Both the position numbers and the translations under genes were made by a program. From NCBI GenBank assembly GCA_036253495.1, contig GCA_036253495.1_4125.1: 64,000 nucleotides of DNA; one strand, written 5' to 3'. The stretch is from a phage. Position 1 is the stretch's first letter. Each line of letters starts with the position of its first letter. The notes below the pieces were generated by a model. That model was not told where the DNA came from and made no database searches. It saw only the letters and a program-made list of their open reading frames with translations. Of this stretch, positions 11,691-62,946 are shown piece by piece.

Positions 11691-11880
11691 CGAATACGGT
11701 GTTATCATCCTTGATGTTATCAATAAAGAATACCATAGGAAACAACGATACGCTTGTTATGAAGATAAACAGCTTTCTATAGCTGAACAACAATTAGTTC
11801 ATTTATTAGGAACAAACTATCAAGAACAATGCACTGAACGTTACCTGTATCTACTGTCGAGGAAAACACAAAGATTATGA
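11671..11880 (+). CDS. GTNYQ-family small protein
   Basis: track ORF; LLGTNYQ. Confidence 0.7.
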   Translation: MQHLTDDEYGVIILDVINKEYHRKQRYACYEDKQLSIAEQQLVHLLGTNYQEQCTERYLYLLSRKTQRL

Positions 11881-42807: not shown

Positions 42808-42813
42808 TTTTTT
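42786..42813 (+). terminator. putative terminator overlapping the end of the small basic ORF
   Basis: GTCGAGATTTTATCTCGAC hairpin then TAATTTTTT. Confidence 0.5.
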
Positions 42814-42829
42814 GTCCGAGGAAATGTAA

Positions 42830-43666
42830 ATGTTCTTAAACTTCAAAGAGTATTCAGTACTTGATCATATCAAGATTCTATCTGAGAATCCTGAAACATT
42901 TGGTGCAGTAAAAACAGCAAATGGAGAATCTTATGATGTTTATAACATTACAGGACATACTGTTTCTGTAAAAAACAATATCCGTCCTTCGACACTAGAT
43001 ATTAATATTCGTAATAATGAAACTTATGAAACTTCACTATCATACGAATATGATTCAGATCTTAAGTCTGAAATATTCAACACACCATCAGTCCATTATT
43101 ACAAGTCAGAAGATACAATTCGTTACCGAGATACCACGATTAATGATATAGTTTTTAATCGTAGAATTAATGCCAGTGGTATAGTTTCAGTTCGTAGTAC
43201 TGATAGATTTGCAAAATATACTGTCGAAAATAATGTACGATCATTTGAAACAACTTTCCGTCTAACACAAGGTACAGAAGAAAGCAACATCACACTCCAA
43301 GAACGTTTGTCATCAGACGGGATTATTATGCGTAGTGTTGCTTTTTTCAGATATAACACCGAAGATGGGCGTCCAGTGATGTGTGATTTGGATATCACTC
43401 GTACAGGTGATAAAACAATTGCCACTATAACCTCTGGATACCGACATTCGTTTACATTAGAACTGGATGTACCTGATGCATCATTACTTGGTATTTTTGA
43501 TCCGCTGGCAGCATTTCAAGCAGAGTTAGTACTGAACCCTAAGCAGTACGAGATTCTTGATATCTTACGTAAAGGCATAGTTAATAAGTTGAAAACTTAC
43601 CAACAGTTAGGTGGTAAGATGAGTATAGTTAATACTATTCTCGAAAATATTGAAAGAGTAAGTTAA
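42830..43666 (+). CDS. hypothetical protein (278 aa) with weak FQxxL motif
   Basis: track ORF; SD GAGGAAA; motif LAAFQAELVLN near C-terminus. Confidence 0.65.
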   Translation: MFLNFKEYSVLDHIKILSENPETFGAVKTANGESYDVYNITGHTVSVKNNIRPSTLDINIRNNETYETSLSYEYDSDLKSEIFNTPSVHYYKSEDTIRYRDTTINDIVFNRRINASGIVSVRSTDRFAKYTVENNVRSFETTFRLTQGTEESNITLQERLSSDGIIMRSVAFFRYNTEDGRPVMCDLDITRTGDKTIATITSGYRHSFTLELDVPDASLLGIFDPLAAFQAELVLNPKQYEILDILRKGIVNKLKTYQQLGGKMSIVNTILENIERVS

Positions 43667-46934: not shown

Positions 46935-46951
46935 TTAAAGGACTTAATGAT

Positions 46952-47479
46952 ATGGGGAAAAAGGATAATCCCACAAAAAACAAACATTCGGTACACTTCA
47001 GTACTGGAAAAGATAACTGGACTACTCCAAAGGAATTCTTTGAAGATTTGGATGAAGTCTGGGGATTTACACTTGATGCAGCATGTGTTAAAGAAACTGC
47101 ATTATGTGACAAGTTTTTTACACCGGAAGATGATAGTCTTTCACAGGATTGGGGAAACAATATCGTCTTTCTTAACCCACCATACAGCGACCTGAAACCT
47201 TGGCTATCTAAGGCAGTTGATGCTTATAATAATGGTGCAACAGTACTGATACTTGTTCCATCACGTACTGATACAATTGCATTTCAGGAATATGCATCTA
47301 AGCTTTGTGACTGTATTTGTTTTATTAAAGGACGTTTAAAATTTGGCATCCCTGAAGAACCAGATAAAAAGACTGATAGTGCTCCATTCCCTAGCTGTTT
47401 AATAGTACTGGATAAGTACTTAACACCAGCTAAAATCAACCATCTTAAATCTATCGGTCAGGTGATGAAGAATATATGA
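46952..47479 (+). CDS. phage Dam-family DNA N6-adenine methyltransferase
   Basis: track ORF; NPPYS catalytic motif, FTLDAA, WTTPKEFFEDL N-terminal block. Confidence 0.8.
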   Translation: MGKKDNPTKNKHSVHFSTGKDNWTTPKEFFEDLDEVWGFTLDAACVKETALCDKFFTPEDDSLSQDWGNNIVFLNPPYSDLKPWLSKAVDAYNNGATVLILVPSRTDTIAFQEYASKLCDCICFIKGRLKFGIPEEPDKKTDSAPFPSCLIVLDKYLTPAKINHLKSIGQVMKNI

Positions 47480-48588: not shown

Positions 48589-49186
48589 TACATATTTTCG
48601 TTACCTACGCCTTGGGCTATCACTTCGTCCAATTCGAGGTAAATGTGATTCTCTTGCTGATTTAGATTATGCATATTCCATTTATGATGATGGTGTACAG
48701 TATGTTCTGGGTGACTTCGGTGAGTTTGAAGAAACCAATGACAGTACTGGTATTATGGACGGCATTGAGAATCTAGATTGCATCGTAAACAGTTCAAGAC
48801 ATGATGTAATCAAAGAAATTCATAAATTTATTGAAACTAACACAGCAAAAACTACATGGTGTTTAGTAGGTACAGATCCACAAATGGCAATTGCTTTTGG
48901 TAATGAAGATGGATATGTAGCACAACTTATCATGGATTTTGCATCTAAAGAGAAATTTGAAGAATTCAAAGCAAAGATGGTTCAATCACTTCTTCAGATG
49001 GGTATCCCTGAAGATAAGATGCCAGAGATTCAAGATATTGAAGAATTTGTCTTAATTCCTTCAGATGAAAAATATGACGTATTATTCAGTACTCTGAACA
49101 TTCCAGGTGTTATCGTTGAAAGCTTTGATGACGATGATGGTGAAATCTACATCGAACTGGATGATGATGACGACGACGATGAATAA
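48569..49186 (+). CDS. hypothetical protein with poly-Asp C-terminal tail
   Basis: SD AAGGAGA + TTG 48569 (track ATG 48527); tail DDDDGEIYIELDDDDDDDE. Confidence 0.6.
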   Translation: MTNTNSNTYFRYLRLGLSLRPIRGKCDSLADLDYAYSIYDDGVQYVLGDFGEFEETNDSTGIMDGIENLDCIVNSSRHDVIKEIHKFIETNTAKTTWCLVGTDPQMAIAFGNEDGYVAQLIMDFASKEKFEEFKAKMVQSLLQMGIPEDKMPEIQDIEEFVLIPSDEKYDVLFSTLNIPGVIVESFDDDDGEIYIELDDDDDDDE

Positions 49187-49191
49187 TAATT

Positions 49192-49220
49192 ATGCCCGAC
49201 TTTGTTCGGGCATCTTTTTA
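49192..49220 (+). terminator. rho-independent terminator
   Basis: ATGCCCGACTTTGTTCGGGCAT hairpin then CTTTTT. Confidence 0.75.
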
Positions 49221-49231
49221 AGGAAAAGTAA

Positions 49232-49504
49232 ATGGACTATCGAGTACTGAATAGAACATATAAAGCTTTATACAAAACATATATTGAAAGTAAAGTACAT
49301 AATCCTATCATTTATAAAAATCCAGTTTATATTATATGGAATGAATATTTTACAATGATTCAAAATTACTTTTACTCTAACGAAATCTTTATAGATGGTG
49401 AAATGCGTAAGCTAACACGCGTTGATAGTATAGGTGGTGAAATTGTGTTATTCTATACTGATTCTATTATTGGACAACAATCTATAAATTTAGAGATATT
49501 ATAA
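49232..49504 (+). CDS. KYIGK-family small protein
   Basis: track ORF; MDYRVLNRTYK N-terminus; VDSIGGEI block. Confidence 0.65.
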   Translation: MDYRVLNRTYKALYKTYIESKVHNPIIYKNPVYIIWNEYFTMIQNYFYSNEIFIDGEMRKLTRVDSIGGEIVLFYTDSIIGQQSINLEIL

Positions 49505-49770
49505 TGAATTATAAGGATTTACATTTCACCTATAAACTAACATTTTATATGTATCGTTATGCTGATAACAACTTCATGGATAATGCATTTTATCATCGTT
49601 TGTGGAGTGATTATATAAATTCTTTACGTGAACATTTTATAGGTACTATAATTCAATACGAAGGTAAAACAGTAAAAATATTTCAAGTTGATAGTTACAA
49701 CGGGGATCTATGCTTCAAGGGTAGAGATTCTAGTGATGGATTACATGAGATTTATATCTATGAATTATAA
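49504..49770 (+). CDS. KYIGK-family small protein
   Basis: track ORF; MNYKDLHFTYK; HFIGT..VDSYNGDL. Confidence 0.7.
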   Translation: MNYKDLHFTYKLTFYMYRYADNNFMDNAFYHRLWSDYINSLREHFIGTIIQYEGKTVKIFQVDSYNGDLCFKGRDSSDGLHEIYIYEL

Positions 49771-50035
49771 GGATTTACAATTCACGTACAAAATTCTTCA
49801 TGAACAATATGAACGTGGTGAAGGAATATTAACTTACGATGAACGAGATTTTTTTCTTACATTGTGGTGTGAATATTTGGCAATGATTAACGAGATTTTT
49901 GTTGATAAAGAATATATGATTGACGACATGACTGTACGTATTATCAGAATTAAAAGTTATAATGGAAGTCTTGTTGGAATTTACTATAACAATGAAAAGG
50001 CGAAAAGCGGATTTGTTGATTTGGAGTATCTATGA
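49760..50035 (+). CDS. KYIGK-family small protein
   Basis: ATG 49760 (MNYKDLQFTYK; track 49688). Confidence 0.65.
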   Translation: MNYKDLQFTYKILHEQYERGEGILTYDERDFFLTLWCEYLAMINEIFVDKEYMIDDMTVRIIRIKSYNGSLVGIYYNNEKAKSGFVDLEYL

Positions 50036-50295
50036 ACTATAATGATTTACAATTCACGTATCAACTTTTATATGATGATATGAATAACGAATTAGGTTTC
50101 TACTATGAAGTACGTAATAAAATATGGTCAAATTATCTATCTGAGATACAACATCATTTTATAGGACTTCCAATACGTAGAAATAATAAAAACTATCGTT
50201 GTACTGATGTAGTAAGTCATAGAGGTAGGTTGCGTTTAGAATTCTACCGCAGAGACGGGGACTTCATTGGTATAAATTTACTGGATTTTAAATGA
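50032..50295 (+). CDS. KYIGK-family small protein
   Basis: track ORF; MNYNDLQFTYQ; HFIGL..CTDVVSHRG. Confidence 0.7.
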   Translation: MNYNDLQFTYQLLYDDMNNELGFYYEVRNKIWSNYLSEIQHHFIGLPIRRNNKNYRCTDVVSHRGRLRLEFYRRDGDFIGINLLDFK

Positions 50296-50580
50296 TGAAA
50301 AACAACTTAAAGGAAATACAAGTATTTTATAGATTCTTATACTTGTCATATGTAACAGATGAGTACTATGAAAGTGTGTATTATTTTTTTATGGCAACAT
50401 TACCGTACTATAGTAAGAGATTTATATATAGGAAAATCTATCATATCCAATGGTGAAAAATGTACCTGTACAGATGTTGTTAGTTTTAATGGTTCTTTAA
50501 CACTGTGTTTCAGATGCGATAATAATAGTGGGTCATTTTCATTAAACGTATATCAGTTAGAAGGAATAAATTTTGAATAA
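50295..50580 (+). pseudogene. KYIGK-family paralog split by a +1 frameshift
   Basis: N-terminal half (ATG 50295, 56 aa, family-like) in one frame; C-terminal half (YIGKS..CTDVVSFNG) in the +1 frame as track ORF 50359-50580. Confidence 0.45.
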
Positions 50581-50773
50581 GTGTCCATATTGTAACAGTA
50601 CTCAATTAGCTCGTTTCCGCTTAGATTCAGACTGGGCCACTGGTGCTGGGGATTTCTTTCCCATCAATGATGATGCGGAATACACTGAAGAACAGCACAA
50701 AGATTTTGATAAATCATGGCGACCTGACATTGAGTGCATTTATTGCCTTAATTGTGAGCGTGTACATGACTAA
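50573..50773 (+). CDS. small zinc-ribbon protein
   Basis: track ORF 66 aa; CPYC..CIYCLNC. Confidence 0.6.
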   Translation: MNKCPYCNSTQLARFRLDSDWATGAGDFFPINDDAEYTEEQHKDFDKSWRPDIECIYCLNCERVHD

Positions 50774-51029
50774 AGCTGAACTAATAGTTCATACATATAA
50801 AATGATATACAGTACTGAGTTATCCTGTGGTGCAGATAATCCAGTACTGGACTATTTTATAGAATCTTTGAAAGAACATTATATTGGTAAATCACTGATT
50901 CTTAATAATATTAATTTCACTGTAAAGGATGTAGCACCTGGAAAAAACGTACTAATAGTATGTGTTACTTCATCTGATAACCCAGTATACCCAATAACAA
51001 TAATTTTTGAGGTATTAGGTGATTTATGA
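50766..51029 (+). CDS. KYIGK-family small protein
   Basis: ATG 50766 (track 50643); EHYIGKSLIL. Confidence 0.65.
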   Translation: MTKAELIVHTYKMIYSTELSCGADNPVLDYFIESLKEHYIGKSLILNNINFTVKDVAPGKNVLIVCVTSSDNPVYPITIIFEVLGDL

Positions 51030-51316
51030 ATATCATTTTAATACAGAAAACATATGCTATATTGGTGAAAGATTATTCCATTACATTCGATTCACAAGAA
51101 AGTGCTCTACATAACCTATACAAAAACGTAACACAAGAATACAGAAATATGTTTTCTGACTTAGTAGTAGGAAGATATTTCAGTACTAGAAAATATCCAA
51201 AACTTCAAGCAGAGGATGTTTCTTTTTATTTCAATGGTCATATTACTATTCATAGTTTAGACCAAAATTCACCAACGTACTTAAACTTTTCATTCGATGA
51301 GGTAACCTTTTTATGA
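51026..51316 (+). CDS. hypothetical small protein (KYIGK-family-like N-terminus)
   Basis: track ORF 96 aa. Confidence 0.6.
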   Translation: MNIILIQKTYAILVKDYSITFDSQESALHNLYKNVTQEYRNMFSDLVVGRYFSTRKYPKLQAEDVSFYFNGHITIHSLDQNSPTYLNFSFDEVTFL

Positions 51317-51495
51317 GAACATTATTTTTTATCTGGAGTCTTTTTTCTCTTGCAGTACTGACAGTTGCAGGTGCTTATTCATTTTTAACAATGAATACAT
51401 GGTATATCAATTTACTATTTCCAATTGTCGGTGTAGGTTTAGGATTTACTTTACATAGTGTATGTAAGGATTTCAATGACAAATCAAACAAATGA
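51313..51495 (+). CDS. small membrane protein (two TM helices)
   Basis: track ORF 60 aa; ATGA coupling. Confidence 0.55.
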   Translation: MRTLFFIWSLFSLAVLTVAGAYSFLTMNTWYINLLFPIVGVGLGFTLHSVCKDFNDKSNK

Positions 51496-51760
51496 AGTAC
51501 TTATTGCTGAAACAATGAAGATGATTTATAGTATTACTACAGCACAGAATATGCCCTATCCCATTAAGTCTTTATTGAGGACCGTGTATCTTGTGACTGT
51601 GCAGGAATACTATAAATCCAAGCACAAAAGCATTATTAGTGTTTATCGTGATTATGAAAGGATTCGTATTTTGTACTGGAACAAGAACCGAGTACGTTCT
51701 GAATGTGACCTTGCGGACTTCAAATTAGAGAATCTTTATTGTTATAAAGCGGGACAGTAG
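51476..51760 (+). CDS. hypothetical small protein
   Basis: SD TAAGGA + ATG 51476 (track 51458). Confidence 0.6.
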   Translation: MTNQTNEVLIAETMKMIYSITTAQNMPYPIKSLLRTVYLVTVQEYYKSKHKSIISVYRDYERIRILYWNKNRVRSECDLADFKLENLYCYKAGQ

Positions 51761-51818
51761 TATAAGTAGTGATATAATTGTTGGTATGGAATAATAACTA
51801 ACACAAGGAGCGTGTAGA

Positions 51819-52547
51819 GTGATTGACCGTATCAGATTTGCCAGCGAGTTAGCAAACCAATTAAACATTGCAAATTTCCAAATGCTAACATCCGTAATGG
51901 CAGAACATGCAACTGCATATTCAGTAAGTGGTGTCCAATGCGGACAAGAGAATTTACTAGCTGATGTATACAGTGAAGTGCAAGGTAAACAATATTCAGT
52001 CAAAACATACAAGGATAAGTTTGTTAGTCTGTATATGAACGGCGATATTGAAGAAGAACGTAAGTTTACCGATTTTATTATTGAACGTCGTGTATCAGGT
52101 GTGTCAAACCCGAATGCTGCAAGTGATGTAGTATTTGATGAAGTACTGAAAGATATATACGAAAATGAAGCGAAAAGTAAGAATCATTACAATGTACGTG
52201 AAACTAACACAGTGCTCTTGGGATATGATGAAGACGAATTTTTCTATTATTTCCGTATAACTGAAGTACCTTTTGATTATAAAAAACCACATACCACATG
52301 TGCTCGTGAATTTACTGAAAAGAGTAAAAACTACAAAAAGCACGAAGGCAATCGTTGTAGTGTAAATGGTTATGATGAGAATGGTGTACACATTTATGAA
52401 TGGGTACATCCGAACTGTCAGACTTACACACGTTGCCTTAAAAAGAGATATAATTTAGAAGAACATGAGTCTTTCTACTTCAAAGTTAAGAAGCAAGATT
52501 ATAACAGACCAGACGATTCTGAATTACTTGGTATGATTTACTTCTAA
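51819..52547 (+). CDS. hypothetical protein (242 aa)
   Basis: track ORF; SD AAGGAG + GTG 51819. Confidence 0.65.
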   Translation: MIDRIRFASELANQLNIANFQMLTSVMAEHATAYSVSGVQCGQENLLADVYSEVQGKQYSVKTYKDKFVSLYMNGDIEEERKFTDFIIERRVSGVSNPNAASDVVFDEVLKDIYENEAKSKNHYNVRETNTVLLGYDEDEFFYYFRITEVPFDYKKPHTTCAREFTEKSKNYKKHEGNRCSVNGYDENGVHIYEWVHPNCQTYTRCLKKRYNLEEHESFYFKVKKQDYNRPDDSELLGMIYF

Positions 52548-52555
52548 GGTAAGTT

Positions 52556-52834
52556 ATGAATTTACAAAGAGATGTGTGGACATATGAATATCTTTTAGAA
52601 CTTTATGGTGATATGTATATTAAAAATAAACCATACATAGACGATATAAGGGCTATGATAGATGATTTTTCTTCTGAGTTTATTCCACTTTATACTAATA
52701 AAGAAGTTACACATAAATCAATGAATAAATCAGGTATCATTGATGAAATTGATTTTGATACACATGGTGTGTATTTTTATATTATTTTCTCCAATGATAC
52801 TGTTGGTATATACACGTATAAAGAATTAAAATAA
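52556..52834 (+). CDS. hypothetical protein
   Basis: track ORF 92 aa. Confidence 0.6.
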   Translation: MNLQRDVWTYEYLLELYGDMYIKNKPYIDDIRAMIDDFSSEFIPLYTNKEVTHKSMNKSGIIDEIDFDTHGVYFYIIFSNDTVGIYTYKELK

Positions 52835-61384: not shown

Positions 61385-61728
61385 TGGTTCCGTTATCATC
61401 TGAACTAAGGTACTTCGAATCTCTCCTTGATCTTCAATCAGAATTCGTTAGTACCTTAAAAAATAAATTAATAGGCAAAAAAGTAAAATTCACTCAAGAG
61501 TATATTGACCACATCAATAAGGCTAAGGAGGATGAAGTAGATTCTGACTGGATTTATTGTGATGATGAAGCTTCTCATATCAACGAAAATACAGTTATGT
61601 TTATTACTTTGTTGCGAGTAAAGAATTCATCAATCTATGTTGATGTTGAATATGAAAATCCAAAAAGTTCTGAATGGTACGGATTCACTTACCGTTTAGA
61701 TCGTTTAGAACTAATAGAAGAGGAATAA
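61384..61728 (+). CDS. KYIGK-family small protein
   Basis: track ORF; NKLIGKKV. Confidence 0.65.
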   Translation: MVPLSSELRYFESLLDLQSEFVSTLKNKLIGKKVKFTQEYIDHINKAKEDEVDSDWIYCDDEASHINENTVMFITLLRVKNSSIYVDVEYENPKSSEWYGFTYRLDRLELIEEE

Positions 61729-61971
61729 ATGATTTTATTTTTTGCTTTGTATGGTGTAGGAGTACTGAGTACATTTATCAGTACTTTTCTTATCATCAAT
61801 TGGGGTTCTTTTAAAGATACCCCTACCACAATGATTAATATTAGTACCTGCTCTATGTTATCAGTACTGTGGCCTGTGTCGTTGGTGTATCTTTTCATTT
61901 CAATCTGTAAAGATTTTTACGATACACTAACAAAATTCAAGAAGAAGAAACATGACAAAGACGGAAATTGA
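61729..61971 (+). CDS. small membrane protein (two TM helices)
   Basis: track ORF 80 aa. Confidence 0.55.
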   Translation: MILFFALYGVGVLSTFISTFLIINWGSFKDTPTTMINISTCSMLSVLWPVSLVYLFISICKDFYDTLTKFKKKKHDKDGN

Positions 61972-62206
61972 ACAGTTAAAGATGTTACAATCGTTATCTG
62001 ATGATTTTGTCCAACGTGCTAAGCACAAATATATTGGTCAAGAAATTCTTCTTAAACACTCCAGAGGTTGGCAAAAAATATGCATAAGAGATATGGGAAC
62101 ATATTATGGTGATGTGCGATATTACGTAGATTGCTATGTTAATGACCAAATTGCCAATACTCAAGTTGTCACCTATGATAAAATTATATGGATTAAAGAA
62201 CAATGA
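61952..62206 (+). CDS. KYIGK-family small protein
   Basis: track ORF; HKYIGQEI. Confidence 0.65.
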   Translation: MTKTEIEQLKMLQSLSDDFVQRAKHKYIGQEILLKHSRGWQKICIRDMGTYYGDVRYYVDCYVNDQIANTQVVTYDKIIWIKEQ

Positions 62207-62946
62207 AACATTTCTTAGAAGTAACAGTTCCTGATGAAAAAGATTTGTATATAGTAGGAGACATTCACGGTAATGCAAAACTATGGGAACATACCAAGAA
62301 AGAATTTGGTATTACTCCTGAAGATTATGTATTCAGTTTAGGCGATTTAATTGACAGAGGTGAGCAAAGTGCTCACCTTTTGTTTGAGTTTTTATTCGCT
62401 GAGAATCGATATATGATCATGGGCAATCATGAATCGATGTGTATTGATTCTGCAACTCATCGTGACTGGTATCATTGCTGGACACAGAATGGGGGCGATA
62501 AGTTCCTGGAAGAAGTTGGTGTATCAGGAGTGGAATTCTTCCGTCAGTACTTGAACCAGCTACCTATGATTATCCAAATCAATCACAGAGGACTCAAGAT
62601 TGGCCTCGTACATGCAAGTGTAGACCTTAAGCACACTGACTGGAATAAGTTCATTACTGGGACAAAATCAATGTCCAGTGATACAATTGAGTCATGCCTA
62701 TGGGACAGAAAGACATTTGATTTCTGTAAAGCTAACAACGTCTTTAATGCACCACGTATTGCTAACGTCGATTACGTTCTTAGTGGTCATACCGCTGTGT
62801 TTGATCCCCTAATTTATGGAAACCGTATCTGGATTGACAGTCAGTTCCTTACTGGTGATTTGACTATTGCTACCCCACAAGGTGGTAAGATGCGTTATTT
62901 GCGTAAAGAAAAAGACGAATATTCATTCAGTCGATTCAAAAGGTAA
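62203..62946 (+). CDS. PPP-family Ser/Thr protein phosphatase (lambda-phosphatase-like metallophosphoesterase)
   Basis: GDIHGN, GDLIDRG, GNHE motifs in canonical order; ATGA coupling. Confidence 0.85.
   Translation: MKHFLEVTVPDEKDLYIVGDIHGNAKLWEHTKKEFGITPEDYVFSLGDLIDRGEQSAHLLFEFLFAENRYMIMGNHESMCIDSATHRDWYHCWTQNGGDKFLEEVGVSGVEFFRQYLNQLPMIIQINHRGLKIGLVHASVDLKHTDWNKFITGTKSMSSDTIESCLWDRKTFDFCKANNVFNAPRIANVDYVLSGHTAVFDPLIYGNRIWIDSQFLTGDLTIATPQGGKMRYLRKEKDEYSFSRFKR

Follow-up and report, generated by a model that had tools for sequence, protein, structure and literature searches.

In the window, the 64,000-nucleotide stretch of phage DNA analyzed here, the fifth of five tandem paralogs has its coding sequence divided between two frames because a homopolymer run is one T too long; this T7 form was found in no other sequence, and the gene is intact in every ortholog. 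The event is ordinary and not programmed, a recently acquired knockout or else a consensus error, and it is confined to this record.

One gene in two frames

The five paralogs, of ~90 codons each, lie at 49232-50580 (Table 1). The four intact ones are closely packed, with overlapping stops and starts, and are preceded by a terminator-like hairpin (49192-49213). In the ORF list and the six-frame translation, the frame-0 ORF of the split copy starts with ATGATG, giving 54 aa from 50292 or 53 aa from 50295, and the first of these ATGs shares bases with the stop codon, TGA, that ends the upstream paralog (ATGA). The +1-frame ORF carries the LYIGKS motif and the native stop; inspection of the sequence upstream of its ATG (50359) found no Shine-Dalgarno-like sequence. 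Against a profile made from intact paralogs and orthologs, the frame-0 piece matched profile positions 1 to 33 with its residues 2 to 33 only, and the +1 piece matched positions 30 to 89. The two are therefore colinear halves of one domain, and the original prediction of a paralog interrupted by a +1 frameshift, with a C-terminal half continuing at 50359-50580, is borne out. Its description of a family-typical N-terminal stretch of 56 aa needs correction in its length, which is 53 or 54 aa, with only the first 32 or 33 residues being native. The change of frame had likewise been placed too far downstream, at ~50440-50470, which is merely where the frame-0 stop falls; it occurs in the T7 run, some 60 to 80 bases upstream.

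Table 1. Coordinates of the split gene, its paralogs, and the adjacent zinc-ribbon gene in the window
Feature	Position	Strand	Description
Intact paralog 1	49232-49504	+	Matches phrog_32291/phrog_21004 group
Intact paralog 2	49504-49770	+	Matches phrog_32291/phrog_21004 group
Intact paralog 3	49760-50035	+	Matches phrog_32291/phrog_21004 group
Intact paralog 4	50032-50295	+	Matches phrog_32291/phrog_21004 group
Frame-0 remnant of split paralog	50292-50456	+	32-33 native N-terminal codons, 21 out-of-frame codons, TGA stop
+1-frame ORF of split paralog	50359-50580	+	73 aa; ~62 native C-terminal codons from the T run on
T7 homopolymer run	50384-50390	+	One-base insertion site relative to T6 in every relative having the run
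Zinc-ribbon gene	50573-50773	+	66 aa, CxxC...CxxC, phrog_22354
Probable distant paralog	50766-51029	+	hhalign vs family profile, E = 1.9e-5
Probable distant paralog	51026-51316	+	hhalign vs family profile, E = 5.8e-6

Deletion of one T yields a 94/95-codon ORF with no other lesion. The repaired protein (MKNNLKEIQVFYRFLYLSYVTDEYYESVYYFLWQHYRTIVRDLYIGKS...GINFE) differs by one residue from A4_415 of Escherichia phage A4 and is 99% identical to the metagenomic protein P0001, and the split is therefore far beyond chance; its residues 5 to 90 align with positions 2 to 99 of the 101 in the phrog_21004 profile (E = 3.4e-5). At the nucleotide level, the repaired ORF shows one to three synonymous differences and one nonsynonymous difference from its counterparts in A4 and the contigs L006 and L007. 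More diverged orthologs (P0002 to P0004; 67, 58, and 59% protein identity) are likewise single intact ORFs at the same position in the array, and pairwise Nei-Gojobori estimates between diverged orthologs (dN/dS of 0.24 to 0.57) point to purifying selection on the gene. Gene order is also kept in A4, 121Q, L006/L007, L009, L012, and L013, where the ortholog occupies the same array position and is followed by the 66-aa zinc-ribbon gene. Five GenBank genomes (PBECO4, UB, phAPEC6, Turkey3, and UE-S1; L016 to L020, at ~331-615) have no CDS annotated here, yet the 94-codon ORF is intact in each. Two separate small genes at this locus, which would have spoken against a split, were thus seen nowhere: all of the relatives compared carry a single gene.

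The run length in related sequences

Alignment of the window with A4 and 121Q placed the sole gap within the gene in the run, which reads TTTTTTT in the window (50384-50390) and TTTTTT in both relatives. A 43-mer centered on the T7 run had no match in GenBank phage records in a search with a 28-base word, under which only T7-bearing records could match. The corresponding T6 42-mer, which doubled as a control for the low-complexity filter, matched 33 GenBank phage records, 29 of them at 100% identity, and all of these matches were ungapped over spans of 40 to 42 bases. Similarly, a T7 27-mer recovered no match in IMG/VR, metagenome contigs, or GTDB genome contigs, the T6 27-mer matched two metagenome contigs, and an exact look-up of the fragment proteins among 15 billion proteins returned nothing. 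The T6 form is also present in three Logan and three metagenome contigs (L006 to L008, L013, L014, and L015), and the three Logan contigs encoding P0001 are all T6. The nearest relative among these, the Logan contig L007, aligns with the window over 6,289 bases at 99.5% identity, with the extra T as the only gap. Overall, ~40 related sequences have T6, and the T7 allele was seen only in this window, with no independent occurrence in the collections searched. Two orthologs are devoid of any T run and encode the YYNLW segment by TACAATTTA; the run thus happens to occur within the coding sequence and is not a conserved signal.

Recoding, mutation, or consensus error

The original prediction had offered a programmed frameshift as one explanation. 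On this reading, ribosomes would shift by +1 or -2 on the U7/T7 run, or transcription would slip there, so that the full-length protein is made and the split is a regulated feature. Mechanistically, a trace of this protein could arise: within UUUUUUU, tRNA-Phe can form a perfect pairing again once it has moved by +1 or -2, and A/T runs allow RNA polymerase to slip. However, all of the relatives have a single frame with T6, and the two orthologs encoding this segment by TACAATTTA have no run, leaving nothing conserved to program. Frame 0 reads UAU UAU UUU UUU AUG across the run, with no slow, rare, or stop codon at the shift. We found no GGAGG-like or other Shine-Dalgarno-like stimulator in the sequence upstream of the shift (GAGTACTATGAAAGTGTGTATTA), and no stimulatory structure downstream, the segment 50391-50480 folding at -14.1 kcal/mol against a shuffle mean of -13.6 (z = -0.19). 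The change of frame required is +1 (or -2), which is where the family C terminus lies, whereas the only in-phase heptamer, U_UUU_UUU, leads into the -1 frame and reads FFYGNITVL before meeting a stop after nine codons; the slippery site thus lends programming no support. Efficient transcriptional slippage usually needs a run longer than seven (eight to nine or more); here the run is seven, and it is six in the relatives, which are in frame. Known programmed frameshifts (prfB at +1; dnaX, insertion sequences, and the tail-chaperone G/GT genes at -1) likewise have a U-rich slippery run at the junction. Unlike the prfB type, the window has no conserved split, no stop or slow codon, and no Shine-Dalgarno-like stimulator, and unlike the -1 systems, its heptamer leads to a stop in the -1 frame and the downstream structure is missing. 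We accordingly consider this explanation very improbable, and because the recoding signals are missing and the comparative data point the same way, a programmed event can for practical purposes be ruled out from the sequences compared. Scarcely any probability attaches, too, to a real but leaky T7 allele, in which spontaneous +1/-2 shifts or RNA polymerase slippage would yield a low level of full-length protein and the T6 and T7 forms would act as a reversible dosage switch for one paralog of this accessory array. That the ORFs are two genuinely separate small genes of 54 and 73 aa has practically no chance of being correct: both do have ATG starts, but they are colinear halves of one family profile, no relative has two genes here, and the 73-aa ORF lacks a ribosome-binding site, and its first ~10 codons are an out-of-frame reading of the native N-terminal half.

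The choice then lies between a mutation in the phage and an error in the record. We give an even chance to the extra T being a very recent slippage mutation in the lineage of this isolate, in which case it would lie in the phage DNA and not merely in the assembly. It is a somewhat less than even prospect that the T is an error introduced at the homopolymer in base calling or assembly polishing, the phage itself having T6 and, like all its relatives, an intact 94/95-codon gene. The gain of one base in a homopolymer is a classic error type, T7 is unique among the ~40 related sequences, the ORF is otherwise perfect but for the few substitutions separating it from close relatives, and the gene is conserved under purifying selection everywhere else. 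To gauge how the rest of the record behaves, we can turn to its comparison with A4. Over the ~42 kb aligned at 21792-64000, the extra T is the only frame-breaking indel within a CDS, the other indels being multiples of three, compensating pairs, or intergenic. Among 157 A4 ORFs (plus strand, at least 55 aa) matched in the window at 80% identity or more, only the split gene is divided between two frames. Five of the 95 A/T runs of at least six bases aligned to A4 differ in length, namely, 1 of 76 in coding and 4 of 19 in noncoding sequence (Fisher P = 0.005); the latter are all intergenic (window/A4: 6822, A7/A6; 6964, A6/A7; 44814, A7/A6; 45744, T8/T10). Random errors would ignore coding status, and the differences, skewed toward noncoding runs, are therefore mostly genuine slippage filtered by selection. 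Runs thus often change in length by true mutation in this lineage, and the assembly is not generally error-prone at homopolymers. This pattern slightly favors a real mutation, and it counts against an error that only one coding run and no other ORF is affected and that the four noncoding differences show real slippage to be common in the lineage. Illumina consensus errors at T6/T7 are, moreover, very rare, although one error in 76 coding runs fits a nanopore (long-read) or Ion Torrent consensus. Against a fresh mutation stand the intactness of the gene and the purifying selection on it in ~40 other genomes, which make a tolerated knockout less expected; the absence of secondary decay 3' of the shift, which is equally expected for an artifact; and the possibility of a consensus error at a homopolymer of six to seven bases.

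If the extra T is a fresh mutation, replication slippage in the T6 tract would have produced T7 at 50384-50390 and split an otherwise intact, conserved accessory gene of 94/95 codons, the fifth in its array. Ribosomes initiating at 50292 or 50295 would then translate 32 to 33 native codons, fall out of register at the run, and add 21 junk codons before the stop at 50454-50456, and the C-terminal part would be left with no ribosome-binding site of its own. The break after residue 32 or 33 cuts the second helix (residues 27 to 45) of the predicted structure described below and removes the entire sheet, so that the truncated product should, on the model, be nonfunctional. The outcome would be a null allele of one paralog, a loss that the neighboring paralogs possibly buffer. 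A decaying copy, the other option raised in the original prediction, is only weakly apt as a description: this is at most a freshly inactivated copy, with no further lesion and no relaxed constraint, as removal of the one T restores the complete ORF. Nor does the run behave as a phase-variable locus, only T6 being present in the 33 GenBank records and the six metagenomic and Logan contigs. Like ordinary homopolymer-tract frameshift alleles and consensus errors in phage records, this case is a one-base change of a run within a CDS that occurs in a single record and leaves the rest of the ORF undamaged, and nothing sets it apart from them.

The biological importance is slight, and the practical value lies in flagging 50384-50390 in the genome record, where the two fragment CDSs should be recorded as a single disrupted gene, or else repaired into one gene of 94/95 codons. 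If T7 is the true state, one member of an uncharacterized Asteriusvirus-specific paralog family is naturally knocked out in this isolate, and setting it beside phage A4 could offer a first way into the role of the family. In that case, the peptide SVYYFFMATLPYYSK would mark the truncated product and the junction peptide SVYYFLWQHYR would mark a trans-frame product.

The paralog family and its genomic setting

The repaired protein and the four upstream paralogs match, end to end, phrog_21004/phrog_32291, which comprise small Asteriusvirus proteins of unknown function; the fifth copy of the window differs from these members in being interrupted. Searches with the family found no match in Pfam, and only families of unknown function in PHROGs. 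At E ≤ 0.001, a profile search of 1.84 billion representatives (50%-identity clusters) recovered 15 proteins, of which about a dozen are 88 to 101 aa long; the three weakest of those outside this length range are long repetitive proteins and probably spurious. A word-indexed search of 5.8 billion proteins recovered 12 family members, and neither of these two large searches yielded an annotated one. An AlphaFold2 model of the intact protein (16-sequence alignment; mean pLDDT, 89.6) predicts helices at residues 6 to 22 and 27 to 45 followed by a four-strand sheet (49 to 85), i.e., a helical hairpin with a small SH3/Tudor/KOW-like sheet. Foldseek searches of the PDB returned nothing significant (best E, ~0.1; TM-score, ≤0.44), the best of these nonsignificant matches being to small, generic barrels of the SH3/Tudor/KOW type, among them EF-P domain I, the PcrA/UvrD Tudor domain, and CarD. 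In BFVD, the significant matches were only to uncharacterized Asteriusvirus proteins; a 96-aa protein of slurp01 matched the family model with a TM-score of 0.78, and a RaK2 protein gave an E of 0.06 and a TM-score of 0.61. With no informative match from Pfam, PHROGs, the PDB, or BFVD, we refrained from naming a function for the family. The literature on the paralogs of 121Q/PBECO4 yielded nothing specific; it offered no more than a general remark on paralogous ORFs in the related phage CBB.

The zinc-ribbon gene downstream, which showed only weak, subthreshold Pfam matches (e.g., Lar_restr_allev), begins with TTG, and this start and the native stop of the split gene overlap by 8 bases. It may be translationally coupled to the split gene, and termination in frame 0, 117 bases early, might weaken such coupling, although AAGGA lies 7 to 8 bases before the TTG. 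Beyond it, profile comparison with hhalign points to two probable distant paralogs of the array family (Table 1), with the slurp01 match to the model as further evidence. The ORFs 52556-52834 and 51476-51760 were also considered as family members and were rejected (hhalign E of 0.15 and 0.3, respectively). The array lies within a long run of small plus-strand genes near those for a Dam methylase, an RNA ligase, and a polynucleotide kinase, a setting which suggests that its products could be accessory or host-takeover proteins. The four upstream paralogs (49232-50266) are >97% identical only in A4-like genomes and the Logan contigs, and the 121Q/PBECO4 group has different, longer genes (103 to 105 aa) upstream of 50266; the array is therefore a fast-evolving, lineage-variable cassette.

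The window itself belongs to an Asteriusvirus, a jumbo coliphage of the 121Q/PBECO4 kind. In searches of a GenBank phage collection without the window's own genome, megablast with 49000-52000 matched 36 records, all of them Escherichia or Salmonella jumbo phages of this kind, the Asteriusvirus label being that of those records whose taxonomy was looked up. Escherichia phage A4 (ON286972), the nearest GenBank relative, was the top match, at 98.6% identity across the entire query; in the remaining records, the alignment begins only at window position 50266, at 84 to 91% identity. Across the whole window, A4 is 98.6 to 99.6% identical over 21792-64000 and 93 to 98% identical over 1601-21814.

Some minor differences in annotation and gene content accompany these comparisons. 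In 121Q, the ortholog of the split gene (gp426; L002, 2529-2813) is annotated from an internal TTG, as 78 aa instead of 94, and in this phage and the five genomes with no annotated CDS, the start of the ortholog overlaps the upstream gene by ~38 bases. Besides the split gene, the only real gene among the 157 matched A4 ORFs with no full-length single-frame match is the ortholog of A4_329, in which a 2-base deletion at window position 11872, near the 3' end, alters the last ~8 codons; two further exceptions are a spurious ORF and one truncated by the end of the window. Finally, two segments of ~0.66 kb are missing from the window relative to A4, at ~42813-42830 (A4 61557-62213, coding for a putative HNH endonuclease, A4_397, and A4_398) and ~46942-46978 (A4 66328-66985, coding for A4_405, directly upstream of the Dam methylase gene), a pattern that looks like mobile or accessory genes carried by some phages and lacking in others.
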